64,000 bases of DNA from Perna viridis (lineage: Eukaryota): assembly GCA_037379345.1 (NCBI GenBank), contig CM074512.1, positions 32,488,001-32,552,000 of the forward strand. Reading direction: 5' to 3'. A program made the position numbers and the translations under genes. This document shows, piece after piece, positions 30,123-51,112 of the stretch. How positions within the stretch are numbered: the stretch's first letter is position 1; each line of letters begins with the position of its first letter. Under the pieces are notes generated by a model that worked only from the letters and a program-made list of their open reading frames with translations, had not been told where the DNA came from and did no database searches.

Positions 30123-31460
30123 TTAAATTGGCTGTTTCTTCAAATCTTCTTGAGAGTCGGAAATTTTCACACCTAAAATGGGAGACCTAATGTGTCGGAT
30201 TATTGTCAAAACTACTTTCACGAGGAACAACAGGCTCCCAACAGTCAACAGAACAAGAGTGATGATTGTATTTCTATTATCAATGTTGTAGTTTTCGCTC
30301 AAACTTCCAATAAGGGCAACAATAATCACAAGATATGGAGTGAGTGTATAACGAGTGAATTTGTCCCAGAAGAAGAAGTCTAATGTAACGAAGACAACAA
30401 TTTGGGCTGCAATAATCGACAATGCTACCGTGCCGCCATTTTGGACTGAAATATCGATAGTTGATCTGTACACCAAAACCATGTTCAGATTCAAATTTGT
30501 GGCAATGGTGCACCAAGTAGCATAAACAGAAATTCCATTCTGTACAAGAATTCTTGTCAGCCAAATATCCCATTTCCGATCCGATTTTTGAAGAGTGTGC
30601 AAATTGTTATTCAATGCTCTGTAAGTCAGGAACAAGCATGCGTAGAGAGTAATATACATCATCAGCAAGACAGCAAAACAGGCTTCGAGATGCTCCCTAT
30701 CAAATAGAAAAATCCAACACAGATTTAACGCCATGTTGACAATAAAATTAACGAAAAATGGAGCGCATAATAATTCCGGGTCGTTGAACGCATAACCAGA
30801 TTCCGTCTTTCTGAAGATATTGGCAATTGTATAGATAAGCCACAGCGTTTCCCACACGTAGATCACGCCCCAAATGCTAAATGTCCACCCGGCTGGTGTT
30901 ATATCCAAGTAATATTTGTCCGAAATATTTCCAGTGCTGCTTTTGAAAATTCCTGATTCTGGAAATAAAAATGTACATATTTTAAGGAATTACTTTTTAC
31001 ACATTAACATGTGAATATGCTTAAAGTTAACGATAATTTTGTCCAATAACCAAGATATTATCATAATAAAACTAGATATGGAAATCAACAAGCCTTTTTA
31101 TATAAATAACTGGGTACAAGGTTTTATTCTTTAAACATTTCAATTACTTGATACATTTTTGTAACTGAAGAACAACACATCTTCATGTCGGCTTCTGTTT
31201 TTGTGCCTGCTCAAGGGGGTGCTTTAGAAGTTTCAGTAAATCATAAAATTGTTCATCTATAGCATGCCTGACTGATTTATTAAACAGCTGTAGAAATTAA
31301 TGGACTTGGAATTAAATCAGATAGTATATTTCAAGAAAGAACTGACTGTAGTAAACCCACCTCTACCAACAGAACTTCCAGACAAAGCATTAAATGATGT
31401 CGCCACTGCATACATGAGGCACGCGCCTATCACGAGCCCGACGTACGTACAACGGTCCAT
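30123..31460 (-). CDS. Multi-pass membrane protein, TspO/tryptophan-rich sensory protein-like, 311 aa, 2 coding exons
   Basis: Exon 31460-31361 (MDRCTYVG..SVGR G|gtgggt) and exon 30958-30123 (tttccag|AA), 936 nt in frame. Motifs ISDKYYLDITPAGWTFSIWGVIY, LNLCWIFLF and NGISVYATWCTIATNLN; about 8 hydrophobic segments. Probable non-coding exon 1 ends at 32141. Confidence 0.85.
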
Positions 31461-32221
31461 TTTCTGTTGAAAAAAGACAATAAGATTACAATAAAAAAAC
31501 AAACATAAATGAACAAAAAAAACCAAAAAAACAACAGAGCAATCACTAGAAAGTTTAGAGGTTTATAACGAGAACACATTTGAATCATCAAATAAGTTTA
31601 ATTTGCCTAAGAAAATTAAATTGGAATTATTTAACTGAAAACTTGTGTTATTTTTCTTTTTATAGATAACAAGATAAATCAAAATCAATCAGGTTTTTTT
31701 TTCGAGGAAAGAAGTTGAATAGACTAATTCGACTTATGAGCCTAAAATGCTAACGGTGACCACGTAAAGGTGATCCACAGAATTATGTTTAACAAGACTG
31801 TTTGGTCAATTGTAAATACTGAATTTGGACTCAAAACTTTATTATAGTGCAGCCTGAGTTTACATTTTGTTACATTAATATATTCTACATTGTCAGCCAG
31901 CCTTCGAAGTTCTTTTAAATTCTAGATTACATTTTTCAATAAAACACAAATGACAGATAAAGCAATTAAATAAATGTTTGTTTTGTGAAAATATTATATT
32001 ATTACTAACAGAAAAACTTTCTGAAAATGAATTAAATTATATTAAAATAAACCTTAATTAGACGATTTCATACAAGTATGTATATAAATATACGGTTATT
32101 CTGACAAAAAGATACATTTTAAAACAATAACAATTCCTACCTTTATTGTGTCGAATTAGCCTCTCGTCAATGAATAAAATATTTTTTATTCTTGTATTTA
32201 TTTGTAACTGTTTCATAACCA

Positions 32222-33214: not shown

Positions 33215-34600
33215 CGAAGTCCAAATTGATTTCTGGAGCGTGTTATATTAATGGAGGATAAATTTCATTGCAACAGACCAGCTGGAGCTTTCATCATTTT
33301 CACTATCAACTGATCATGACATAACATTTATTTTCCATACTTTCATCCGCCTGATGACATTTGTTGTTAAATAGGCCAATGGCTCTGATGATCGTGTGAA
33401 TTTGTGCACCGACTGGAAGTATTCCCGTTAGAGTGTATATGACGGCACCTGCTACATTTGGTGGAAGAGATAAAATTAACTCAACATTTTCTTTTGAAAG
33501 TTTTTAAATTTTATCAAATAGTTTGAGAAATTAATGATTAATAATTTCTTTCCATATAAAGTACAGGTGTAGCGTATATTTTGTACAAATGAACTATGGC
33601 GCCACCATTAAGTCCATTTTGTCCGGGAAAGCCGCTGCCGTATTTACTTGCCTCTTTTATGTTTTGTCCGACTTTATTCATATTGGTTTTCAGAGATTGT
33701 GTTCTTATAATCACTAGGTGTGTATCGATTTGTCTATACAACGGGCATTTTTGTTGAACCTAAAGTGTATTCTTGTATGAGTGGCGATTCATGTCACAAT
33801 AAGAACAATATTTCTATAATGATGCTTTTTTTCTATCATGATAGTTTCAACTTGTATCATAATACTAGTAAGGTGTGTAATGATACTTACTTGAAGTATC
33901 ATTATACTAATTGGAAGTATCATGATACTTGTTTCAAGAATCACGATACTTTGGGGGAATGGGGTTATCTTTATAAGTAAAAGGATGTTTCGCGGAAGTA
34001 TCATGATACTTGTTAATAGTATAATGATAATAGTTGAAAGTATAATAATTTCCAACAAATATCGTGATACTTTAAACTATCATGATACTTCCAATTAATA
34101 TAATGATACTTCAAGTAAGCACTATTATCTCATTACTATACACCTTACTAGTATCAAGATAGAGAAAAGCATCATTACAAAAATATCCTTATTGTGCATG
34201 AATCGCCACTCATATTCTTGTTCTGATGAAAGTACTTTTCGTTTGAAAGGTTTTGGAAGTACGTTTATTACTATCTTTAATTGTTTGCTGCAACTGGTAT
34301 TCTTCCATGTAGAAATAATCGTATAAATATTTGCGTAATAACTTCCTATGCGCTGATTAATGCAATACACGCTATATAATTGGTGCTAATGTTTCCTATT
34401 CTAAATTCTATGCCGGATGCCTCAAATCGGTCGAGTAGCTGGTTGATATATGTATATACATGCAGCTTGTACAAGTCTGTACTATACAATGGCCGCGAAA
34501 CCTTTAACGTATGAGTTGTAGCTAGGATTAAGTCATATAACATACTACATTGTCAATGATGTGGAAGCAATCCCTTTATGGGTAAATCGTTATTAAACAT
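33215..34600 (-). pseudogene. Decayed LINE (RTE-X-like) RT fragments interrupted by a MITE
   Basis: Minus-strand fragments STDLYKL..YINQLLDRFEASGIEFRIGNI, THLVIIR and GSGFPGQNGLN..HLYKIYATPVLY. Boundaries approximate. Confidence 0.6.
33776..34214. mobile_element. MITE with internal array of palindromic AAGTATCATGATACTT units
   Basis: TIR TATGAGTGGCGATTCATG(T)CACAATAAG / CTTATTGTGCATGAATCGCCACTCATA; TTCTTG duplicated at 33770-33775 and 34215-34220. Confidence 0.8.
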
Positions 34601-36089: not shown

Positions 36090-36247
36090 AGAATCTACAC
36101 GATAACGAGTTGATTATAGAATTTCTCACATCGAGTGAAACAAATTTTATCGTTTTAATAGCGTGGCTTGCCGAGCTATTCAAACTATAAAGTTTATTTC
36201 ACGAGATGTGAGAAATTCATAATAAACAAGCTTTGAGTGTAGATTCT
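36090..36247. repeat. Long imperfect palindrome (fold-back end of a non-autonomous DNA element)
   Basis: agaatctacac..gaatttctcacatcgagtgaaa / tttcacgagatgtgagaaattc..gtgtagattct. Confidence 0.7.
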
Positions 36248-36899
36248 GTTTCTCTAATGCCCTAAAAAATGTCAAAAATACCCAAAAATTAAAAGCGCGC
36301 GAAACGCTATGATTCCGATTCGTAGGAAACATGTTGATGTCATGCACACAAAATCAAACATTCCAAACAAAAGAAACCAGACGATTTCAAAGGTTTTTTT
36401 TTACTTCAAATCTTCCCGAGTCCCTTCATAATTCTTATTTAAGGTAAGAAAACACCAACATTATATCTCATTTAACTGAAATATAACTACAATAGCAATC
36501 GAGGCGATTCAAGATTGAGTCCAGGACAATCGATTTTTAACCCTTACTATGCCAATGAGCCTATAAATAGGCTTTTCATACTCCCGTGTTTTGCCAAGAG
36601 CCTACATATAGGCTTAGCAACTGTTGTCTTTACATTCAAGATTCAAGATTTCAAAATTTTAATAAGATAACTCGGACATAATGAATATGTAACATGAGAG
36701 TATTGTCATATATACACATAAAATAATACATTCAATGTAATAAAATAATAATATAGTATTCACAATAACAATAGACAATATAATTATACATGGTTTCAAA
36801 ATAATGCAACTATTCTTTTTATAAAAATACAAAAGTGCTGGAGACGAGGACCAGTCACCGGCATGCAATTTAAGTACAGATGGGTCCATCAAAACTATA

Positions 36900-39800
36900 A
36901 AGTCTTATAAACAAGATGGTTTGTTTTTGAAATGGAATATTTCTATGTCGAAGTTAACTGTCTTATTGACACAGGTTCCACTACATTTATTTTGCACCCC
37001 AGAAAATATTGTGATTCCAAATGACATGAAGCCGGAATTGAAGAGGCATAATTCAAGATTATGCTTACCTGATGGAGGGTACATAAAGACTATGGGTTAT
37101 GTAAATTTACCGATACGTGTAAATAATTTGGTCATAAATCCACAATTTATGACAGCAAACATTGATGTTCCTGCTGTTATAGGATATGACTTTCTGAATA
37201 AACATAAATGTACACTTGATATGGGTAGAGGTGTACTTTCTTTGAGTCAAAACCAGGTGCAATGTACCAAAGAGAGTCAAATTGACTCCATTTTTCAAAA
37301 TTGTTTTAGGGGGAAAAGTTACAGTTCGGCCGAACTCGGAGATTTTCACGCAAGGCAAAGTTGTGGCCTATGTTAATGCAATAGTTGAGTCGGTCCACAC
37401 CAAAAACGTAGAGAGAGTCCTGATTGCTAAGGCTTTGGTTGATCCTTCCTGTGGCCAAATTCCATTGAGGTTAGCGAATATTACTGGGGCCACGTGTGAG
37501 CTCGCTGAGTCTGATTTACATCCTCATGAAGCAACAGATCGCACATTAATGAAAGTTATTGAAAGTACAGACGATGATTTTCCTGCACATCTAAAATCCT
37601 TAAGACAAACGAGCAGTAAATTACTGTCTGATTAACAGATGACGGGATATGCCAAACCATTTAAGCAAGCCCCAAGACTTATACTTATAATTAAAAGAGA
37701 GGCGGTCGACAAGGAGATCCAAAGGCTACTAGACTGTAACATCATAGAACCGTCGAAAAGTCCTTGGGCATCCAATATTGTTCCTGTAACAAAAAAAAGA
37801 TGGTTCAATACGCATATGCTTTGATATGATAGCCCTGAATAACTTTACCATAAAAGATTCATATCCACTTCCACGTATAGACGATTCACTTGATGCTTTG
37901 AGAGGGTCCAAATGATTTAGTGTACTTGACCTTTCGAGTGGATATTTCCAGACACAGACGGACGAACATGATAAAGAAAAGACTGCCTTTACCAGTACAA
38001 AGGGTCTGTTTCAGTTCAAAGTTATGGCAATGGAATTGTGCAGCGGAGTTTCCACATTCCAAAGGTTAATGGAGTATGTCCTGGTCGAACTCAATTGGCA
38101 AACATGCATAATATATATTGATGACATTGTCATTTTTTCAGACTCATTTGAATCCCATTGTTCAAGACTCAGTAAGGTTCTAGAGAGGATTTCAATGGGA
38201 GGCTTGAAAGTTTCACCAAAGAAATATTTTTTATTTCAAGAACAAGTGTCTTTTCTAGGGCACATAGTATCATCGCTTGGAATTTCTGCTGATCCACTGA
38301 AAATAGAATGTATAAAGTCGTGGCCCAGTCCTACCACAGTTAAAGAAGTAAGATCCTTTCTGGAAACATGCTCCTATTACAGGAGGTTTATCCAAACTTT
38401 TGCAGTAATAGCCAAGCCAATGCATAGATTAACAGAGAAAACTACCCTTTCGATTGGACCACTGAATGGGAGTCTGCATTTACAGTCCTCAAAGAAGCGT
38501 TGGGAACATCTCCAATCCTGGGGTACCCAGATATGTCAAAACCCTTTTTGCTCGACACGGATGCGAGTGGATATGGGGTGGGAAGTGTCCTGTCCCAATT
38601 TTCTGGTGACAAAGTTGTAATAGCTTGTTACAGCAAAACCCTTAGTAAAGCGTAACGCCAATATTGCTTACTAGAAGGGAGCTGTTGACAATCATTTTAA
38701 GCATTAAACAGTTCCACCGTTATCTATATGGTGCAAAATTCCTAGTACGTAGTGACCATAGTGCACTCTCATGGATTTTACGGTTCAAAAAAAACCCGGA
38801 AGGTCAAATGGCCAGATGGTTAGAGTTTGTGAATATATACAATATGCTGGTACAACATCGACCAGGAAAGATACATGGGAATTGTGATGACCTCTCAGGC
38901 CGCCCTGTGTTGACTGTAACCACTGTGATAAGCAAGATCAGAAAGAGATTGACGAGGAAGATGCACCTGACTTCTGTCGAAGAACGAAGAAGACAAAGGA
39001 ATCCATTGAAGACGAAGAAGGGCCATAACTTTGGTTAAGCGGTAAAACAGATGAGCAACTGGCCAAAGCTAAAAAAAAACGAGACCCAGTTCTTTCACTA
39101 TTCCATGAAGTGAAGACGAAGCTGATTGGGAAACCTAGTTGGTCTGATATCTCAATTGAGAATACAAATTTTAAAAAGTACCAGTCCCAGTGGGATCGGT
39201 TAGTGCTAAGAAATGATGTGCTGTACCGAAATTGGATTCATTCTACTACGGAAGGGACGATTCTACAATTATTGATTCCGTATCCATGGAAACAAGATGT
39301 ACTTGAAGTGATGACGAACAATGTGGACATCTAGGTATACATAAGACGACTGCAAGAGTCCAAAACCAGTTCTACTGGGTTGGAAACAAGCGGGACGTCA
39401 TTGCCCACATTCAAAACTGCATAATATGTGGTTCACGAACACAGCCTCCGAGACGAGCTAAAAGTAAGATGAAACAATATCATGTTGGGGCCCGCTAAAG
39501 AGAATTGGTCTGGATTTGATTGGGCCTAAGATGCGGTCCCATAAAGGTAATAGATACACGTTGATTATCTCGGACTATTTTACCAAATGGGCTGAAGTCT
39601 ATCAATTACCAGACACGGAAGCGCAAACAGTTGCTGACAGTTTTGCCACAAATTTTATTTGTCGTTTCTGTGTCTCTCGACAGGTTCATGCTGATCAGGG
39701 TAGACAATTTGAGTCCAAACTTTTCAATTCTGAATTAATAAGACGAGGACGACTTATAGGCCACAAAGCAATGGTCTTGTAGAACGGCTTAATAGGTCCT

Positions 39801-40405
39801 AGAGGACATAGTAAGTAAATATGTAAATAAAAACCAAAAGGATTGGGATTAGCACCTACCATGGGCATTAATGGCCTATCGCTCATTTGAGAATGAGACG
39901 ACTAAATTATCCCCCTGCATGTTAATGCTTGGCAGGGAAATTGAAATCCCTTGATTCAGTGCATGGTCCTCATCCCCAGAAAGACGATTGTCCCACTAAA
40001 ACAGAAGCGGTCTCTTCTTATGCCAAGAAAACTCAAGAGCTGTTATGGAACGTACAACAGAAAGCACGCAAAAATCTGGCCAATGCCAGTGATAAGCAAA
40101 TGCGATCCTATGACGTAAAGGCTCAACAGAATTCGTACAAGACCGGAGATCCTGTTTGGTTGTACTCATATACTAGAACCAAACAGATAAGCCCGAAGCT
40201 CAAATGTCCATGGGAGTGTCCTTTCATTGTAACTGAAGTCATTTCAGATGTGATATATAAGATTAAAAAATGTCCTAATTCCAGAATCCAAATTGTACAT
40301 CATGACAGACTGAAACCATTCTATGGGAGAGTAGACAATTGGTACAAAACTCAGTCTTTGACAGTTCAAAGCTCACAGAGCATAGTTGGCCCGTCATCAC
40401 AGTAA
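36900..40405 (+). pseudogene. pol: Gypsy pol pseudogene (PR-RT-RH-IN)
   Basis: CLIDTGS (protease), SPWASNIVPV, DSYPLPRIDD, YIDD (RT), LDTDAS and TRRELL..RSDHSAL (RNase H), ISDYFTKW..HADQGRQFES (integrase), IVHHDRLKPF. Many frameshifts and stops. Confidence 0.92.
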
Positions 40406-41573: not shown

Positions 41574-41815
41574 CAATATACACTGTTTCTTAAAAGACAT
41601 TTGTAAATACTGAACAATCATGTAACATGGTGGGAGGGTAGATATTTATTATGTAATAGAACAAAGTATTTCTTGTCCGGGACGGACAATATTTTCAAAG
41701 CAGGGGGCGGATTAAAAAAAACGTAAAGTTGTCATCACTCATGTTTATGAAATGTGTTGAATTATTTATATATGCCATTTGTAGGGCAGCCTGGGCAAGT
41801 TTATATTGTGTATAC

Positions 41816-42684
41816 TGTCGCAGGTCAAAATACAAGGGCCGGGACATCGGCAAAATATTTGTATTATGGCTGCATAAAAAGTCGTCCTGGTAATTTAACT
41901 TTATTCGTCTGAAAATAAACATATACATGTTTGCCAAATACAGCGTAACCTGAAAATAATGCACAAGATCTACACATTCCATAAATGTGTATTTACGGAG
42001 TATCGATGCACAAAAACTATCATTTGCCGATATTGAATGATAAACTAACATGAAATGAATGAACTATACGAATTTTAACTTTGCATAAATTTGTGAAAAT
42101 GAATTACGGAAATTGAAATGAAATATTATTAAACTAAAGAATAATGATTATTGTCAAATTGAAACTATATGAATTCCAAATAGCTAAAACGTTTATCCAA
42201 TTTACTTACTATCAATCTTATTAAACTTTATCTCATTGAATAATAAAGTTTCCAAATAAAATATTTTAGAAATGAAATAAATTTCTTAATCAATAAATAT
42301 TCGTACCTGAACGGCGACTTGCGTCCTCCGTCGACTATTGTGGAGTGAGCAAATTTTCAATTGTTATTGATTTTATAATATTTTGTTAGTAAGACATGCA
42401 GTGCCCGTGGCGCGGGAATGTCGATACTGTATAAAGTCAAAATATAGTTCATGTCGTATTGATTAAATGTACGTCATGATGATTACAAATACATGTACGT
42501 CATGATGAATATGAATGAATGACGAATGATATGATGAGTGATTGATAACATATAAACAAAACATCCCCCTTCTAGATTATAAACAACTAATAATCTATCA
42601 AATTCAAGTACGGATCATATATGCATACGATCTACATAATAACTATATCAAATACATCCCCCCTTTACAATCTATACGGTGACA
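41816..42684 (-). repeat. 3' LTR (869 bp)
   Basis: Direct repeat of 49888-50756, no differences seen by eye. Termini TGTC..GACA; AATAAA on the minus strand at 41900-41905. Confidence 0.97.
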
Positions 42685-42696
42685 TACACCCCCTCC
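42685..42696 (-). promoter_or_regulatory. Polypurine tract
   Basis: GGAGGGGGTGTA immediately 5' of the 3' LTR on the minus strand. Confidence 0.85.
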
Positions 42697-42958
42697 ATAA
42701 GAAAAATGGGATTCGTCCCCGAAACCAATGACAAAACAATAAACCTATAATACATTCGAAAATGCATAGTCAAATATTCAAAATGAAATTTGGCCATTCC
42801 CAAGTCAAACATGTGGCAAGCGCCTCTATGCGATTACAAATGTCCAAAATTCATATGAAAACAAGTATTTATTTATACACATGTAAAATATTGCAAACAA
42901 TACAATTTATCAAAATATCAGACAGATTTACATCATGTTTGTGAACCCATTTTGTTTC

Positions 42959-43633
42959 TCAATTATTCAACTTGGACTCATTACATCCAAATACAGAATT
43001 CAAACGTCGAATCCATACATCACGTAATTCGATTCCCGGATGTACACCATCAATCAATTTCGAATAAACGTATCGAATTCTGCCTTTATTATATTTATGA
43101 ACTGGTGTGTGCAAAAACGGTGTGACAAATCCGTTGCCGGTGTTATATTCTGTAATATAACTATTTATTTTGTTTAAGATTTCGTTCAGCATCTCTTGCA
43201 TATTATTATAATGCGTATCCAATAGAAGATAAGAAGTTTTTCCTTGTTGAAGTCTTATATTGTTCCATACCACGAAACTCATAGTAGTAATAGTTGCCAT
43301 TACTATTTTGCAATCTATGGAACTTAACTTCTCTTCTATCATACGGATATTAGTTTTAAAAATCTGCATATGATTGATCTTTTCTCCTTTTGAATCTCTG
43401 ATCTCTAAGCAAGATTCTTGATAACGGTTTGCTCTGCGAACGGAGCATATGTCCGGTATACCCGCTATAAAATAAACGATTTTGTTACCATCTATATCTT
43501 TTAAATCATCGTACGCTTTGTCACATAATTGTCTCAAGTTTGCACCCGGTTTTACGTATAAATGTTGGCAAAACAATTTGCCTTCCAGTGTTCTTCCTCT
43601 ACTGGAGGTGTATGTATAGGTCCGCGGGTTCAT
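42959..43633 (-). CDS. ORF3 of Gypsy element: SGNH/GDSL hydrolase (esterase)-like protein, 224 aa
   Basis: Block I TSSRG (Ser11), block II PGA (Gly30), block III VYFIAGIPD (58-61), block V LIDGVHP (Asp195/His198), in canonical SGNH order and spacing. Intact ORF between the pol stop and the PPT, preceded by splice acceptor tttcttttag|attgaaATG. Confidence 0.8.
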   Translation of the reverse strand: MNPRTYTYTSSRGRTLEGKLFCQHLYVKPGANLRQLCDKAYDDLKDIDGNKIVYFIAGIPDICSVRRANRYQESCLEIRDSKGEKINHMQIFKTNIRMIEEKLSSIDCKIVMATITTMSFVVWNNIRLQQGKTSYLLLDTHYNNMQEMLNEILNKINSYITEYNTGNGFVTPFLHTPVHKYNKGRIRYVYSKLIDGVHPGIELRDVWIRRLNSVFGCNESKLNN

Positions 43634-43732
43634 TTCAATCTAAAAGAAATGAATATATATTCTATATGGAAATTTCCGTTAATATAAACAAAATCGCAAA
43701 ATGAAATATATATAATTAATGAATTAATAAAA

Positions 43733-46700
43733 CTATGTAATATAATCTCTAAATCTGATAGGTGGTCTGACTTGTCTAGTAGACCTACGAACTGGGATTT
43801 CTGGTGTAACATCCGGTTCACTAACATTTGGTTCAACGACGGACTCGCTACTTTCTCGTACATCGGAAATCGAATTCTCTAATGTCGCACTCGATCGGGT
43901 ATCAGTTAAACTCAACAGTTTATTATAACTGCTCGAACTTGAATCGGACGAATAATTGTCACGCCTAACGATTACTTGTGGATCAAACGGAACTGCCAAT
44001 GGATTCAAAGGACTAACCTGTTTCTGTGATCCGTCATGTCTTACAAAAACGAGTTCATCCTCGGAATTAGACTCCGGTTCATACTCCACATCGTCAATAC
44101 CAACTGAATAATCATTCTCATTCGATTCTGTAACGTCGACACAAACTTCCGTCTCCTTTCTTTCTGGGCGGTTCCGACTCGTTTCCCCAGAATCCAGAAA
44201 TTGGACAGATGTAATCGGTAATAACATATTTCTATGTACCGTTTTTCGGATTCGTCCGTGTTCTTGTCGGATCACATAAACTGGAATTTCAGAATCGGGT
44301 CGAGACATTACGATGTAAGGTTCTTTACCCCATTTATTTGCCAATTTATGTTTTCCTTTGAATGCTACATTCTTCAATAATACTCGATCACCCGGTTCAA
44401 GTGTTGATTGACGTACCTTGAGATCGTATCGAGATTTATGACGTCTATTAACCCTTTCTGCTGTTTTCGCTGCCGTTTTATATGCGAACTGCAATCTTTT
44501 CTTCAAACCATAGACATACGAATTTCGATCGGCTGTCGAAGAAGAGTTGACGTCACTACCTAAAAATGCATCAATAGCAAGACGTGGATGCCAACCAAAC
44601 ATTAGAAAATGCGGACTATAACCAGTACTTTCATGCTTAGTAGCATTATAAGCATGTACTAGCGGTGCTACATAACTCTTCCAATTCGCCTTTTTATCAT
44701 CTTCGAGAGTGCCTAGCATATTTAACAGAGTTTGATTAAATCGTTCGCATTGGCCATTACCTTGTGGGTGGTAAGGGGTGGTGCGCGATTTCTTAACGTC
44801 TGCCAAATTGCATAGCTCTCTGATAACTTTCGACTCAAAGTTTCGACCTTGGTCGCTATGTATACGAGATGGAAACGAATAATGTTGAATGAAATGTTCC
44901 CATAAACTTTTGGCTGTAGTTTTAGCTGACTGATTCCTTGTTGGAATTGCCTGAGCATACCTTGTGAAATGATCAGTTATGACTAATATATTTTCATAAC
45001 CCCCTTTGGATCGTTCCAGTGTTAGATAATCTATACATAGAATCTCCAAAGGCTGAGACGAAGATATATTAATCAATTCTGCGGATTTCGTTGATCTGGT
45101 TTTTCTTAGAATGCATTTTGCACATGACGACACCTTACGTTCAACGTCTTTATCTACACCTGGCCAATAATACCTGGATTTTACCAACGACAAAGTCCTA
45201 TCTCGGCCCTGATGACCAACATCGTCGTGAAGACCTACAAGAGCGATCTCACGGTAGATATCGGGCAACACTAGCTGAGAAACTGACTCGTTGTTGATAA
45301 AACTCTTTCTATATAAAACCTCCTGTTGCATATATAATTTATCCCATTCTCTTATATATTTCTTGACGTCATCGCTTTCCTTCGAGATCTGCCGTTTCGT
45401 CGGTTTATGTCCAGTACTAATTAATTCGATAATTCTACTGATTGCAATGTCACATTTCTGTTCTTTGGACCAGTCAATATCGGATAAATTTGACTGATAA
45501 TCCATATTGTCGACAATTTCTGCATCTTGTGATAACAGTAAACTTTCTACTATTGGTTGTTCTGACTGAGCAATAGTTGCTGAACTACATACTGCCTTAA
45601 TGACGTCACAGTCTATGTGGTTTAGATTAGTATGATTTCTGGACAAAATATCGGCATCAATATTCGATTTACCGGTTCGATAGCTCAGATTGAAATCATA
45701 GTTTGACAATGCGGCCACCCACCTATGTCCTGTAGCATCAAGCTTAGCTTTATCTAAGACGTAGGTTAATGGGTTATTGTCAGTTCTGACCTCAAACTTA
45801 CTACCTGACAGATAATCATGAAATTTGTCGGTTACTGCCCATTTAAGTGCCAAAAATTCCCTCTTGTGGGCCGGATATAACCGTTCTGGACCACGTAAAC
45901 TACGACTAGCGTATGCAATGACCCTCTCTTTACCTTCTCTTCTCTGATACAATATAGCACCAAGACCAGTTCCAGATGCGTCTATATTAAGAATAAAAGG
46001 CAACGAGAAGTCTGCAAAAGCAAGAACAGGTGGATTTATAAGCTTGCTAATGATTGCATCCATCGCATTTTGCTCATTGGTACCCCACTGCCAGGGAGTT
46101 GGCTTTGCTCTCTTCTTAGGCTTAGCCTTTTTTTTGTTAGTGTGGTGACCAATTAACAAATCATTTAATGGCTTTGCAATCTTAGCATAGTCCTTGATAA
46201 ACTTTCTGTAGTATGATGTAAAACCAAGAAATTTTCTAAGATCTTTGACACCACTTACTTTAGGCCAGTTTTTTACGGCGGATACTTTATCGGGATCGGT
46301 CTTAATACCGTCGGCAGATACAATAACCCCAAGGTACTTAATCTCACTCTTGAAAAACTCACATTTATCGCCGCGAAGTTTTAAACCATTCTCTTCAAGA
46401 CGCTTAAACACAGATTCCAAACGTTCGAAATGTTGTTCGATCGTACTCGAGAACACGACTATATCATCTAGAAAAACTAGACATTGTCTTAAATGAGCCT
46501 CGCCCATGCATCGTTCCATTAACCTTTGAAACGTCGCACCGGAATTTGTCAATCCAAAAGGGAGACGATTCCACTCGTAAAATCCCAAAGGGCCTAAATT
46601 GAAAGCGGTCATAAATTTATCAGATTCCTTGATTCCACAATTCCAATACGCCGAACGGAGATCTAGGCGGGAAAAGAACTTAGAACCCGACAGACAATCA

Positions 46701-47956
46701 ATCGTCTCGTCTATCCGCGGTAGAGCGTACGCGTCTTTCACGGTACGTTTGTTTAATTTTCTAAAATCGATACAAAAACGAAGACTACCGTCTTTCTTTC
46801 GTACAAGTACAACGTTACTCGAGAACGGACTATTCGATTCGCGAATACAACCCGCTTCTAGCATTTCCCGAACATGTTCGCGAACTTCATCAAACAACGC
46901 CGGTGGTATACGTCTATACGGCTCTTTAAATGGTTTATCGTCGGTCAATTTAATTTCGTGTTCTAACAGTTTTGTATACCCTATATCAGAAGAACCTTTG
47001 GAAAATACTGACTTCCATTTTCCAAGCAAACCTCGCAATCTATCCTTTACCTCATAATCTAAACTATCAGATATTTTAATACCAAGTTCCTCTAAAGGCA
47101 TATCTTTCGTAACATTTTTCTCATTCGAATCTAAGTCTATGTGACGCATGACCTTGACCTCGTTCAGACTACATATAGTTGTTTTAGGTTTAATGGCAAC
47201 TGTTCTCGCTGTCATATTAAATATTCTGACTGGAACTCTACAAGTTTTACCCTTCAGATTAACAACTCTGGGGCAAACTGCTAAAGAATCAGAGTTATCG
47301 CCCTCTAAATTCTCTGTTACAACAGTTGTATCACATGAAACCTTGGATTTAGCTAATCCATTAATCGTCATGACTGACATGGGTTTTAGCCTTAAGGGCT
47401 TTCTGTTTGTAGATTTAACTTTACCTACAATTGATTCGGTCAGAGTACTAAATGCTAAATTCCATTCTTTCGGAATACCTTGAGTATTATCCTCAGACAT
47501 ACACATATGGAAAAGCTTGATTATATTTGTCCCTACTACAATGGGAACATTCTGATTGTATTCAGTCGGAGAAACAACTAATAGAGGTACATAAACCTCA
47601 TCTTGTGACATAAAACTGACCTTAACTTTGGCCTCGATATAACCTTGGTATGGCAAAACAGCGCCACCTGCTACATTGACAGTTAGACATAATTCACTCA
47701 GATCCCGTAATTCAGGTACTGGTTTCAATTTATTCAACATTGAGCTTGAAATTGTTGAAATCATTGAACCACTATCGATCAATGCCCTACATTTAACATT
47801 ATTGACAATGATATTTGCCTCATTAGCTTTTCCAACCATTCTATCTAACAGACTTTGTTGATCTTTATCATAACTTTCTTTAGGACTAAAGGTTTCTGAA
47901 ACCTTTTGTGTAAAGTCACGTGTTCGTCCTTCAACCGAGACCTTTATCCGTTTAAA
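43733..47956 (-). CDS. pol: Gypsy Pol polyprotein (protease, RT, RNase H, integrase), probably expressed by -1 frameshift from gag
   Basis: 1368-aa ORF from Met at 47839; the frame stays open upstream to the slippery site at 47956. LIDSGS, LRFCIDFRKLN, LPFGL, FLDD, NIDAS, RTDNNPL, HDDVGH..CAKC, ITDHFTRY, HSDQGRNFE, GNGQCERFN, KLANKWGKEPY. Confidence 0.97.
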   Translation of the reverse strand, partial: FKRIKVSVEGRTRDFTQKVSETFSPKESYDKDQQSLLDRMVGKANEANIIVNNVKCRALIDSGSMISTISSSMLNKLKPVPELRDLSELCLTVNVAGGAVLPYQGYIEAKVKVSFMSQDEVYVPLLVVSPTEYNQNVPIVVGTNIIKLFHMCMSEDNTQGIPKEWNLAFSTLTESIVGKVKSTNRKPLRLKPMSVMTINGLAKSKVSCDTTVVTENLEGDNSDSLAVCPRVVNLKGKTCRVPVRIFNMTARTVAIKPKTTICSLNEVKVMRHIDLDSNEKNVTKDMPLEELGIKISDSLDYEVKDRLRGLLGKWKSVFSKGSSDIGYTKLLEHEIKLTDDKPFKEPYRRIPPALFDEVREHVREMLEAGCIRESNSPFSSNVVLVRKKDGSLRFCIDFRKLNKRTVKDAYALPRIDETIDCLSGSKFFSRLDLRSAYWNCGIKESDKFMTAFNLGPLGFYEWNRLPFGLTNSGATFQRLMERCMGEAHLRQCLVFLDDIVVFSSTIEQHFERLESVFKRLEENGLKLRGDKCEFFKSEIKYLGVIVSADGIKTDPDKVSAVKNWPKVSGVKDLRKFLGFTSYYRKFIKDYAKIAKPLNDLLIGHHTNKKKAKPKKRAKPTPWQWGTNEQNAMDAIISKLINPPVLAFADFSLPFILNIDASGTGLGAILYQRREGKERVIAYASRSLRGPERLYPAHKREFLALKWAVTDKFHDYLSGSKFEVRTDNNPLTYVLDKAKLDATGHRWVAALSNYDFNLSYRTGKSNIDADILSRNHTNLNHIDCDVIKAVCSSATIAQSEQPIVESLLLSQDAEIVDNMDYQSNLSDIDWSKEQKCDIAISRIIELISTGHKPTKRQISKESDDVKKYIREWDKLYMQQEVLYRKSFINNESVSQLVLPDIYREIALVGLHDDVGHQGRDRTLSLVKSRYYWPGVDKDVERKVSSCAKCILRKTRSTKSAELINISSSQPLEILCIDYLTLERSKGGYENILVITDHFTRYAQAIPTRNQSAKTTAKSLWEHFIQHYSFPSRIHSDQGRNFESKVIRELCNLADVKKSRTTPYHPQGNGQCERFNQTLLNMLGTLEDDKKANWKSYVAPLVHAYNATKHESTGYSPHFLMFGWHPRLAIDAFLGSDVNSSSTADRNSYVYGLKKRLQFAYKTAAKTAERVNRRHKSRYDLKVRQSTLEPGDRVLLKNVAFKGKHKLANKWGKEPYIVMSRPDSEIPVYVIRQEHGRIRKTVHRNMLLPITSVQFLDSGETSRNRPERKETEVCVDVTESNENDYSVGIDDVEYEPESNSEDELVFVRHDGSQKQVSPLNPLAVPFDPQVIVRRDNYSSDSSSSSYNKLLSLTDTRSSATLENSISDVRESSESVVEPNVSEPDVTPEIPVRRSTRQVRPPIRFRDYIT

Positions 47957-49104
47957 TTATCGGATTTATTCTGACCTTGGTTGTTGTAACTATTATTATA
48001 GTTTCCTCTACCTCCGAAACTACCTCTCTGACCTCTATTCGTACCTCTACTATTATAACCTCTATAACTTCTATAACCTTGTCCTGACCCTTTTCCATTT
48101 TGATTTTGTTTTTCATTTCTATTCGACTCTTTCAACTTTTTAAGTTCATCTTCAATAGATTCTATTTTCTTGTTCAGAGATTTCAACGATTTCGATACTT
48201 CATCTAGTTTATCTGATTGAGTAATCGAAGCTTGTTGTTGTATCTTTTTCTCAGTACTTTTAGACCTTTGATAATTAGATAAGTCAAGTTCTATTGATCT
48301 TATTTCTTTTCTTAACTGATCAAAATCCATTACAGTATCATACTTATATCTACTAGCATTTTTCAATGATGGATCTCTCAAACCAGACCAAAATTTTGAC
48401 CGAAGCATCTCATTCTTAGCTGCAGGATTTATTTGACCCTTTTCAACAGCCAATTGTATCAAACCCTCTAATTGCATACCATATTCAGCAACTGATTGAT
48501 TTGGTTGTTGATTTTCACTATAAAATCTCTGCAGTAATGCTTCACTACTAAACACATTCCCATAGACCCCTTCAAGTTTATCTATAATCTGGGACGGTGT
48601 AGCGTCATCGGACAATGAAAGTAGCAAACTTCTTGCTTTCCCCTTCAAAGACCCACGTATACTCTGTCGCAAAATAATATCGCTATAATTCCCTTCTCTA
48701 ATAATACATCTGACTTCGTATTTCCATACGTCAAAATTCACTTCGCTTTTCTCTTCCCCAGAAAATATTGGTATTCTAGGTTTAGCTTGAGACACACCAG
48801 GATTATCATGTGCCATTGTGGCATGAAAATCATGAATAGGGGGTGGGGTATGTGTAGGCGTTTGCCTGCTCCTTACTGCTGGGGTACTAGTTACAAATGC
48901 AGAAGGAATATGTTTCATTCTATCGAACTCTTCAGATGTAACAACTTTGTAATCTGAATGTCGATTAATAATATCGATCATAAGAGCTATTTTCTCTTCA
49001 CTAATACTTTCAATACTACTCTTTTGCTCTTCCTTGTGTGTCTCTTTGCCACCCGATGCCATAATAACTAATAGAGTTACTAAACTCAAATATAAATTCA
49101 ACAT
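47944..49104 (-). CDS. gag: Gypsy Gag (PNMA/Ma-like capsid), RG/N-rich tail, no CCHC knuckle
   Basis: PRIPIFSGEEKSEVNFDVWKYEV, IRGSLKGKA, FYSENQQPNQSVAEYGMQLE, LRSKFWSGL. The real start may be Met at 49062 (MASGG). Confidence 0.93.
   Translation of the reverse strand: MLNLYLSLVTLLVIMASGGKETHKEEQKSSIESISEEKIALMIDIINRHSDYKVVTSEEFDRMKHIPSAFVTSTPAVRSRQTPTHTPPPIHDFHATMAHDNPGVSQAKPRIPIFSGEEKSEVNFDVWKYEVRCIIREGNYSDIILRQSIRGSLKGKARSLLLSLSDDATPSQIIDKLEGVYGNVFSSEALLQRFYSENQQPNQSVAEYGMQLEGLIQLAVEKGQINPAAKNEMLRSKFWSGLRDPSLKNASRYKYDTVMDFDQLRKEIRSIELDLSNYQRSKSTEKKIQQQASITQSDKLDEVSKSLKSLNKKIESIEDELKKLKESNRNEKQNQNGKGSGQGYRSYRGYNSRGTNRGQRGSFGGRGNYNNSYNNQGQNKSDNLNG
47950..47956 (-). promoter_or_regulatory. 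-1 programmed ribosomal frameshift slippery heptamer U UUA AAC
   Basis: gag frame GAT AAT TTA AAC GGA TAA. The -1 frame has TAA immediately before the heptamer, then reads TTT AAA CGG ATA... open into pol. Confidence 0.85.
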
Positions 49105-49726
49105 GCAAAATGATCAATGAAAATGAAATGAACAATGATGATACTTACCAATAATCAGTCAATGTCAGTCGAAACTGTCGCGGCAGACATGCTTGAGAGT
49201 GATTACATCTACAGTGCTCAGTGTGCGGATTAATTCATAAATCTGATAAATATAATTAAAATATCAATATTCATAAAACATCAATACATAAACACATGTA
49301 CACAATATAAATGAATAAAATTGTAAATATTTATGTTTCGGCAAAATGTCCTCAGTTGACCTGTCGCTGGCGTCTATACATCATATCATGTAACGCAAAT
49401 TGCTTATCGGCAAATTAAAAGGAACTGCACATCGTTCGACTCCTATTACGGTATCGGACTGACTCCAGTTGCATACTGTTTGTAATTTCTTTCAATGTTA
49501 CGAAATTATGTTTTGTTGAAATAAAGTCTGCGCAAATACATAAATGGTTTGTAATTATGTTGACTTTCCCACAATTAATCTAATTTTAATACTTTAACCA
49601 TGTCTTCTCATAATTATACGGACGGCTAATTTGCTGGAATTCTTGTATGGATCCCAACCATTTTACCAATACCGTTTGTCGTGGTTCCGGAACATATGTG
49701 GTTAAAGTTGAAATTTGGTAATTTTA

Positions 49727-49856
49727 AGTTGTACCAATAAAGTTGTACCATTAAAGTAGTACCATTAATAAAGTTGTACCATTAAAGTAGTACCATTAAT
49801 AAAGTTGTACCATTATAAAGTAGTACCATTAATAAAGTTGTACCATTATTACCATG
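49727..49856. repeat. Tandem array of 14-17-bp units in the Gypsy 5' leader
   Basis: About 8 copies of aaagt(t/a)gtaccatt(aat) directly downstream of the PBS on the element strand. Confidence 0.9.
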
Positions 49857-49867
49857 GACTATAGCTT

Positions 49868-49885
49868 ATCTCGGTGGAACCTCCA
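49868..49885 (-). promoter_or_regulatory. Primer binding site complementary to tRNA-Gln 3' end
   Basis: Plus strand ATCTCGGTGGAACCTCCA equals the 3' 18 nt of metazoan tRNA-Gln (..AATCTCGGTGGAACCT+CCA), 2 nt from the 5' LTR. Confidence 0.9.
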
Positions 49886-49887
49886 TT

Positions 49888-50756
49888 TGTCGCAGGTCAA
49901 AATACAAGGGCCGGGACATCGGCAAAATATTTGTATTATGGCTGCATAAAAAGTCGTCCTGGTAATTTAACTTTATTCGTCTGAAAATAAACATATACAT
50001 GTTTGCCAAATACAGCGTAACCTGAAAATAATGCACAAGATCTACACATTCCATAAATGTGTATTTACGGAGTATCGATGCACAAAAACTATCATTTGCC
50101 GATATTGAATGATAAACTAACATGAAATGAATGAACTATACGAATTTTAACTTTGCATAAATTTGTGAAAATGAATTACGGAAATTGAAATGAAATATTA
50201 TTAAACTAAAGAATAATGATTATTGTCAAATTGAAACTATATGAATTCCAAATAGCTAAAACGTTTATCCAATTTACTTACTATCAATCTTATTAAACTT
50301 TATCTCATTGAATAATAAAGTTTCCAAATAAAATATTTTAGAAATGAAATAAATTTCTTAATCAATAAATATTCGTACCTGAACGGCGACTTGCGTCCTC
50401 CGTCGACTATTGTGGAGTGAGCAAATTTTCAATTGTTATTGATTTTATAATATTTTGTTAGTAAGACATGCAGTGCCCGTGGCGCGGGAATGTCGATACT
50501 GTATAAAGTCAAAATATAGTTCATGTCGTATTGATTAAATGTACGTCATGATGATTACAAATACATGTACGTCATGATGAATATGAATGAATGACGAATG
50601 ATATGATGAGTGATTGATAACATATAAACAAAACATCCCCCTTCTAGATTATAAACAACTAATAATCTATCAAATTCAAGTACGGATCATATATGCATAC
50701 GATCTACATAATAACTATATCAAATACATCCCCCCTTTACAATCTATACGGTGACA
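49888..50756 (-). repeat. 5' LTR (869 bp)
   Basis: Identical by eye to 41816-42684; adjacent to the PBS. Confidence 0.97.
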
Positions 50757-50899
50757 ATACAAAAATGGTGGTGATCCATTGAGATGTGTTTTTCATGGAA
50801 AGTCAAAATGGTCTAATATAGGGTAAAATTTGATTCTGTTTACTGTGTATAATGGTAACTAGTTAGCACGTATCATCAATATTGTATTGTTAATTATGT

Positions 50900-51112
50900 A
50901 AGAGTAGTCAAGGGAACCGAGGTTATATAGCGGTAATCAAAAGAATGTAAGCCAGGGACAAAGACCAAACATGGAAAACAGACATACACAATAAAGAACA
51001 TAAAGTAACTAAAATCATACATACAAAGTGACAAAAGCAAATGAGCAACTCGGACTCCACTAAAAACTGGAAGCATGGACCAGGTGCACCGGTAGGGTAA
51101 GCGTCCTCTGTT
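50900..51112 (-). repeat. Dispersed short repeat family, best-preserved copy
   Basis: Reverse complement cagaggacgcttaccctaccggtgcacctggtccatgcttcc...cggttcccttgactac; matches 28305-28465 and 7125-7350. Confidence 0.75.

Follow-up and report, generated by a model that had tools for sequence, protein, structure and literature searches.

In the gypsy element and other errantiviruses of Drosophila, gag and a frameshifted pol are followed by a third open reading frame (ORF), which is expressed from a spliced subgenomic mRNA without gag-pol (PMC4276936). The Vesta elements of bdelloid rotifers carry a different kind of third gene, a GDSL/SGNH ORF3 after pol with intact catalytic residues and no transmembrane segment (Rodriguez, Kenefick, and Arkhipova 2017, PMC5408684). 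That paper describes splicing as the typical route by which ORF3s are expressed and reports reads mapped per ORF; from its introduction to its discussion, we found no splice junction for the Vesta ORF3. Non-envelope third genes in rotifer long terminal repeat (LTR) elements have been assumed to be spliced. A further retroelement-borne SGNH hydrolase with a Ser-Asp-His triad is the esterase of ZfL2-1 ORF1p, which binds acidic phospholipids and for which membrane targeting has been proposed (Schneider et al. 2013, PMC3905857). Here we describe an intact, multi-copy Ty3/Gypsy LTR element (Metaviridae) on the minus strand of a 64,000-nucleotide (nt) stretch of the Perna viridis genome (contig CM074512.1, positions 32,488,001 to 32,552,000; hereafter the window, with positions counted from its first letter). 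Its ORF3, a predicted SGNH hydrolase gene, is expressed from a spliced subgenomic RNA of its own, as errantivirus third ORFs are.

Splicing of the ORF3 RNA

A preliminary description of the window, made from the sequence alone, had pointed to a donor and a strong acceptor at either end of gag-pol and had predicted that the 5.5-kb intron between them would give ORF3 its own subgenomic RNA. Both sites are where it placed them. The donor, TTG/GTAAGT, lies upstream of gag with its first intron G at 49148, and the acceptor, TTCATTTCTTTTAG, ends at 43640, 6 nt ahead of the ORF3 ATG at 43633. By simple pyrimidine count this acceptor ranks first among the 261 YAG sites (Y, pyrimidine) on the element's sense strand; GTRAGT (R, purine) occurs there six times, once in the leader.

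Twenty-four public runs were listed and eight of them (X1, X3, X5, X7, X12, X15, X17, and X18) examined, all as contigs, which carry no strand, expression level, start, or poly(A) information and from which rare variants are dropped. The junction of 49149 to 43639 (CT..AC on the plus strand, GT-AG on the minus strand) was found at exactly the predicted bases in contigs of six of the eight runs, from six studies, with its ends ambiguous by a single letter. Junction sides measured 255 letters in X5 and in X17, 166 in X12, and 28 to 29 in X1, X3, and X7. The spliced contigs of X5 and X17 extend upstream to 49765-49781; a singly spliced ORF3 RNA with a long leader therefore exists.

The same junction was absent, at a 1% threshold, from the DNA-like run X15, in which the depth of ~480 rises more than twofold across the LTR, as expected of DNA. 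The joined form was also absent from all nine genomic copies, each of which gave a full 361-nt match in an acceptor-spanning DNA search; that search covered scored candidates only, and the count of nine is a lower bound. We infer that the junction-positive runs are RNA, because two GT-AG introns of a neighboring TspO-like host gene are spliced out in X17 as well and because four runs (X5, X12, X17, and X18) are blank over several kilobases of flank. The interval from 49148 to 43640 thus has the properties of a U2-type intron: GT-AG ends, a U1-matching donor, a pyrimidine tract, and sides that are joined in what we take to be RNA and unjoined in DNA.

Both splice sites recur in related elements. 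The assembly holds 95 ORF3 matches, nine of them copies with ORF3 at 99 to 100% identity and 86 diverged. We examined 24 of the diverged loci (the best matches and those with long frames), which by our own grouping form nine families; the acceptor is present in one or more copies of every family. A YAG stands 0 to 9 nt ahead of the ORF3 start in 22 of the 24, and at least 10 of 15 letters at the acceptor are pyrimidines in 21, compared with a background of 10% per random 25-nt window. Seven of the 10 gag-bearing sister loci have GTRAGT 57 to 123 nt ahead of the gag ATG (background, 4.9% per 130 nt); of the remainder, L031 carries GTAGGT instead, L057 lacks the motif in that interval, and in L051 the leader has been replaced. 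The use of the predicted junction, together with the recurrence of both of its sites among sister families, shows ORF3 to be an integral component of the element, as the preliminary description had argued.

At some related loci gag-pol is missing or gave no match. In L030 (7670-8463), a derivative of the L029 family, ~110 nt separate the LTR and primer-binding site (PBS) from the acceptor and ORF3 that follow, and gag-pol is gone; because the acceptor is retained, the locus arose by deletion and not by the copying of a spliced RNA. L054 and L056 carry distant SGNH ORFs (28 to 32% identity) with the acceptor present and Asn at the position of the catalytic His; no gag or pol match was found within the 9.9 kb fetched for either.

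We read the locus as follows, with a probability of roughly 0.88. Joining the donor at 49148 to the acceptor at 43640 drops gag-pol and sets the ORF3 start 6 nt past the junction, which would give a predicted cytosolic SGNH acyl-hydrolase its own message, and RNA left unspliced at 49148 would likely serve as genome and gag-pol mRNA. The splicing would be performed by the host spliceosome and would be partial, in the manner of env.

Several observations weigh against this reading. X18, RNA-like by its blank flank, gave one unspliced contig without the junction, and three of the six positive runs (X1, X3, and X7) have sides below the 31-letter bridging rule of the mapping tool. None of the 24 listed runs is recorded as RNA, the kind of run being guessed, and the blank-flank comparison includes no DNA run. 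Among the sister loci, the AG found in L037 and L055 is missing from L031 and L036, which belong to the same families; L032, L039, and L056 have no ATG directly after the acceptor; and L041 to L043, which belong to an env-bearing lineage described below, have no GTRAGT within 130 nt of gag.

The ORF3 protein

An Atlas search of ORF3 pointed to GDSL lipases. Pfam gave no meaningful match (neither Lipase_GDSL nor Baculo_F) for the window ORF3 alone, and Lipase_GDSL was matched by 10 of 26 aligned relatives at E values up to 1 (best, 7.1e-8). The ORF3 profile is matched by 1111 representatives at E up to 0.001; its best E in a PDB sequence search was only 0.075. A structure model built from a 106-row alignment reached a predicted local distance difference test score (pLDDT) of 97.8, compared with 35.9 for a single-sequence model. 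Foldseek matched this model to GDSL/SGNH proteins throughout its list (best E, 1.3e-7), and in a structure comparison all of the best matches were GDSL/SGNH proteins, the first with a Z of 16.4 and a root-mean-square deviation of 2.7 over 173 aligned residues. Phage esterases were among the matches in a viral structure library. We also noted a 2135-amino-acid (aa) database protein, P0015, with six stretches that match the ORF3 profile.

The residues expected of an SGNH hydrolase are largely in place, with blocks assigned by motif and position in the model rather than by residue-level superposition. The triad comprises Ser11 (99 of 106 rows), Asp195 (105 of 106), and His198 (104 of 106), and it is kept across ORF3 relatives at 22 to 58% identity; Gly30 of block II is present in 101 rows and Arg12, beside the Ser, in 99. 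Neither a membrane anchor nor a signal peptide was found (top 19-residue hydropathy, 1.32; N terminus hydrophilic), and the isoelectric point is 9.2. One residue departs from the canonical set: the block III Asn (G-x-N-D) is Pro60 here (G-I-P-D), with Pro in 67, Cys in 26, Thr in 7, and Asn in 5 of the 106 rows, and activity is possibly altered. Taken together, these features make the ORF3 product a probable SGNH hydrolase, active, located in the cytosol, and somewhat non-canonical, and not an envelope protein. The parallel with env drawn in the preliminary description therefore holds for the mode of expression, a spliced subgenomic RNA, and fails for the protein.

By analogy with the ZfL2-1 ORF1p esterase, on which we model a membrane role, the basic hydrolase could dock on acidic phospholipids and help particles to assemble on or pass through membranes, a proposal that we would put somewhat short of even odds. 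A serious minority possibility is that the splice is real and that the ORF3 protein has an SGNH fold resembling the OSK domain of Oskar, one that binds RNA or lacks catalysis, or that it removes acyl groups from host factors of immunity or silencing. The OSK domain is among the fold matches (Z, 14.1), as are many carbohydrate O-acetylesterases, and the basic character of the protein, the Pro that mostly replaces the block III Asn, and the conserved Arg12 beside the Ser would all suit such roles. However, the full Ser-Asp-His triad in 93 to 99% of the 106 rows argues for catalysis, and fold matches that lie within a few Z units are uninformative about substrate. We retain an acyl-hydrolase with a membrane role as our tentative account of the protein.

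The leader and the choice of splice

The preliminary description had further proposed that the one donor chooses between two acceptors, an 81-nt leader intron yielding gag-pol mRNA and the 5.5-kb intron yielding ORF3 mRNA. The weak CTATTAG that it named is in place, ending at 49068, 5 nt ahead of the gag ATG at 49062; sister locus L035 also has a YAG 5 nt ahead of its gag ATG, and so small a skip can be lost in contigs. Nevertheless, the junction of 49149 to 49067 was present in none of the eight runs, a count made on contigs that drop rare variants, and contigs of X1, X3, X17, and X18 read across 49068 unspliced, which is weak evidence for the same reason. The site ranks only 45th of the 261 YAG sites by pyrimidine count, the 81 nt are retained in all genomic copies, and no YAG stands between donor and gag ATG in two of four sister families (L049, where the stretch is only 57 nt, and L031). 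Conservation, which the preliminary description had offered as a check, thus favors the ORF3 acceptor (22 of 24 loci) and the donor (7 of 10) and does not extend to the gag-leader acceptor. The use of two acceptors was not borne out by the runs, the read-through contigs, or the sister families, and we consider it improbable; more likely, the choice is between splicing and not splicing, with gag-pol RNA unspliced at 49148.

Upstream of the donor, the contigs disclosed a leader exon, a 610-nt leader intron, and an intron within the LTR (Table 1). The sequence of the LTR intron is also present at 41909-42306, and its splice is assignable to either LTR. Twenty-six ATGs lie between the LTR and the main donor; optional removal of the 610-nt intron would clear 21 of them and could thereby ease translation. 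An N-terminal extension of ORF3 from the leader was considered and rejected: none of the 26 leader ATGs is open to the donor, and an in-frame stop lies 3 codons before the junction. An acceptor-like site is found 88 to 119 nt ahead of the donor in all four sister families examined. In X1 and X12, the LTR is joined to foreign sequence at 49961 (equivalent to 41889), next to a CAG at 49959 that resembles an acceptor; a host transcript may have been spliced into an inserted copy here. Because of this join, the 610-nt splice could be that of a chimeric, host-initiated RNA. Tandem repeats of 14 to 17 nt with one ATG per unit occupy 49726-49848, just after the first donor. They are lost with the 610-nt splice and might serve in packaging or in blocking translation.

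The 60 nt behind the main donor contain five to eight YCAY motifs in the window and in all four sister families, which places them in the top 0.4 to 1.6% of windows per locus. Clusters of YCAY are bound by Nova/Pasilla proteins, which, as TIA does, promote splicing when they sit downstream of an exon (PMC3165201). Tuning of the splice balance by a Nova/Pasilla- or TIA-type factor at this TCAT-rich tract is conceivable, and we hold it to be doubtful; it is a point against it that the YCAY count is no higher than in dinucleotide shuffles of this 60-nt stretch (p 0.12 to 0.73). Elsewhere in the element, YCAY is dense only in a tract of the LTR (window positions 50646-50540 and 42574-42470).

Two other explanations concern the splice as a whole. 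It could chiefly lower the amount of full-length genomic RNA, as self-restraint or host-favored control, the ORF3 product being incidental; the long contig does pass through the splice in X5, X12, and X17, which would fit a large share of spliced RNA, although contig depth cannot rank the two forms. Yet ORF3 is open in eight of nine copies, its triad is conserved down to relatives at 22% identity, and the acceptor tracks the ORF3 start across families, so that we find this explanation very improbable. Least credible of all is that the joined form is a transcribed or contaminating deleted DNA copy or a template-switch artifact, for although run types were guessed and a gag-pol-less derivative exists in a sister family (L030), the ends are exactly GT-AG and identical in six studies, the junction is missing from X15 and from nine of nine genomic copies, and L030, which retains the acceptor, is a different kind of deletion. 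A spliced message for the ORF3 hydrolase remains our reading.

The element family and its place among known systems

The coordinates of the element are collected in Table 1.

Table 1. Features of the Perna viridis element in window coordinates
Feature	Positions	Strand	Remarks
5' LTR	49888..50756	-	869 nt; TG...CA ends; 100% match to 3' LTR
LTR intron	49981..50378	-	398 nt, GT-AG; X3 and X5, side of 25 letters in each (weak)
PBS-like 18-mer	49868..49885	-	directly after LTR; TGG start; also in sister family L029/L030
Leader intron	49243..49852	-	610 nt, GT-AG; junction in X1 only, side of 29 letters
Leader exon	49149..49242	-	94 nt; non-coding; overlooked in the preliminary description
Main donor GTAAGT	49143..49148	-	86 nt ahead of gag ATG
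TCAT-rich tract	49085..49144	-	just within the intron; 6 YCAY per 60 nt; candidate splicing-factor site
Weak YAG, proposed gag acceptor	49068..49074	-	use not seen; not conserved
gag	47944..49062	-	372 aa; PNMA/Retrotrans_gag-like; ATG at 49062
T TTA AAC heptamer	47950..47956	-	gag/pol overlap; candidate -1 frameshift site
pol	43733..47956	-	1407-aa open frame; protease, reverse transcriptase, RNase H, integrase in this order
Main intron	43640..49148	-	5509 nt, GT-AG; contains gag and pol
ORF3 splice acceptor	43640..43655	-	93 nt past pol stop
ORF3	42959..43633	-	224 aa (675 nt); ATG at 43633; SGNH/GDSL hydrolase fold (predicted)
Polypurine-tract-like stretch	42685..42698	-	purine-rich; precedes 3' LTR
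3' LTR	41816..42684	-	869 nt; sole AATAAA begins at 41905

The window element is bounded on either side by a 4-nt target-site duplication, GTAT, and six of the eight other copies also have one of 4 nt. Judging by its sequence, gag and pol are likely joined by a -1 frameshift at the heptamer. The primer is a putative tRNA-Gln, and two pattern searches for a tRNA gene corresponding to the PBS-like 18-mer gave no match. Rfam returned no match over 41700-50900 at E up to 1, and a promoter scan, designed for bacteria and irrelevant to a eukaryote, also gave none. The eight other copies align along the whole element at 99.3 to 99.8%, with all four internal splice sites unchanged to the letter; all three frames are open in five of the nine copies. 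By these sequence comparisons, the family is young and recently copied. The only protein relatives that bear a name come from Mytilus, which fits a bivalve host.

A second lineage carries the SGNH gene together with env. Its members L034 (with L043), L033 (with L042), and L032 (with L041) are young elements whose ~1.3-kb LTRs are 99.6 to 100% alike; all three have gag, a chromodomain pol, and the SGNH ORF preceded by an acceptor of its own. L033 and L034 have, in order, gag, pol with a chromodomain, a Baculo_F-type env (E 1e-16 to 1e-20), and an SGNH ORF with TAG/ATG at its start, a four-gene, errantivirus-like layout. The env is interrupted in both copies, and L032 has no long env frame.

Relative to the window element, L032 to L034 are 36 to 37% identical in reverse transcriptase (RT), yet 45% identical in ORF3; for the L047 family, the values are 56 to 71% and 34 to 37%. 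ORF3 changes ~4 times faster than RT between the window and L029. We compared RT and ORF3 trees of 15 rows, all from loci of this genome, after excluding 7 of 21 loci for a short or missing RT or ORF3. The branch of the env-bearing lineage is long in the RT tree (1.27) and short in the ORF3 tree (0.37) despite the faster change of ORF3, and the SGNH cassette was therefore likely exchanged between lineages. A rooted tree test neither supported nor rejected one origin of the env-less ORF3s (78/83), and only the branch lengths favor exchange. More speculatively, and with considerable doubt, acceptor and hydrolase may form a portable accessory cassette of aquatic Gypsy elements that has moved between distant lineages, being the sole third gene in env-less elements and coming fourth, after F-type env, in chromodomain errantiviruses. 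A conserved leader exon and the YCAY tract would control the splicing of a separate RNA for it, much as in complex retroviruses, and its product would help particles to travel between cells by remodeling membranes or acyl groups.

Other features of the window lie outside the element. A TspO/MBR-like host gene occupies 30123-32141 on the minus strand, and X17 shows its GT-AG introns at 32140-31464 and 31360-30959. On the plus strand, 36825-40405 holds a decayed second Gypsy pol with RT, RNase H, and integrase pieces in several frames, mostly uncovered by X5, X12, X17, and X18. Two inverted repeats, at 33878-34161 (53-nt arms) and 36119-36218 (49-nt arms, within a repeat that the same four runs cover), are likely small non-autonomous DNA elements.

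Splicing as such is the expected solution for a third gene and will not surprise specialists. What the locus offers is a young multi-copy family with a base-exact junction in several studies and a splice layout conserved in at least five families. Its product, predicted to be a small soluble enzyme, makes the role of esterases in retroelements testable in an LTR system, and the occurrence of this gene downstream of env in a distant lineage points to an accessory module that the lineages share.

Our literature search yielded no report of a bivalve LTR element with a spliced SGNH ORF3 and none of an env followed by an SGNH ORF, with subscription literature and Repbase lying outside the search; the main texts of PMC12440569, PMC10294476, and PMC6238403 contain no passages on SGNH, GDSL, or esterases or on ORF3 or splicing. 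Chary and Hayashi (PMC13524379) describe a chromodomain-bearing F-env errantivirus clade in Cnidaria, Mollusca, and Annelida, which L033 and L034 resemble in gene layout. They make no reference to an SGNH ORF after env: the main text contains none of the terms SGNH, GDSL, esterase, and hydrolase, and the seven supplementary files contain none of SGNH, GDSL, lipase, and esterase.

The Perna element therefore stands between systems that are each already described. It shares its order of genes and its spliced third message with the Drosophila errantiviruses, whose third ORF, however, encodes a baculovirus-F-like envelope glycoprotein (PMC4276936), whereas here there is no env and the product is an anchorless protein. 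Its ORF3 resembles that of Vesta in its features; Vesta elements carry a dUTPase and a zinc-knuckle gag, neither of which Pfam found in the window element, and their GDSL amplicons measure 1.3 kb, compared with 675 nt for ORF3 here (PMC5408684). The ZfL2-1 esterase belongs to a long interspersed nuclear element, where it forms part of ORF1p alongside a coiled coil, and has the oxyanion Asn, whereas the window protein is a free ORF on a spliced RNA with Pro for Asn (PMC3905857). GDSL ORF3s and spliced env mRNAs were known before; what is new here is the direct junction for an SGNH ORF3.

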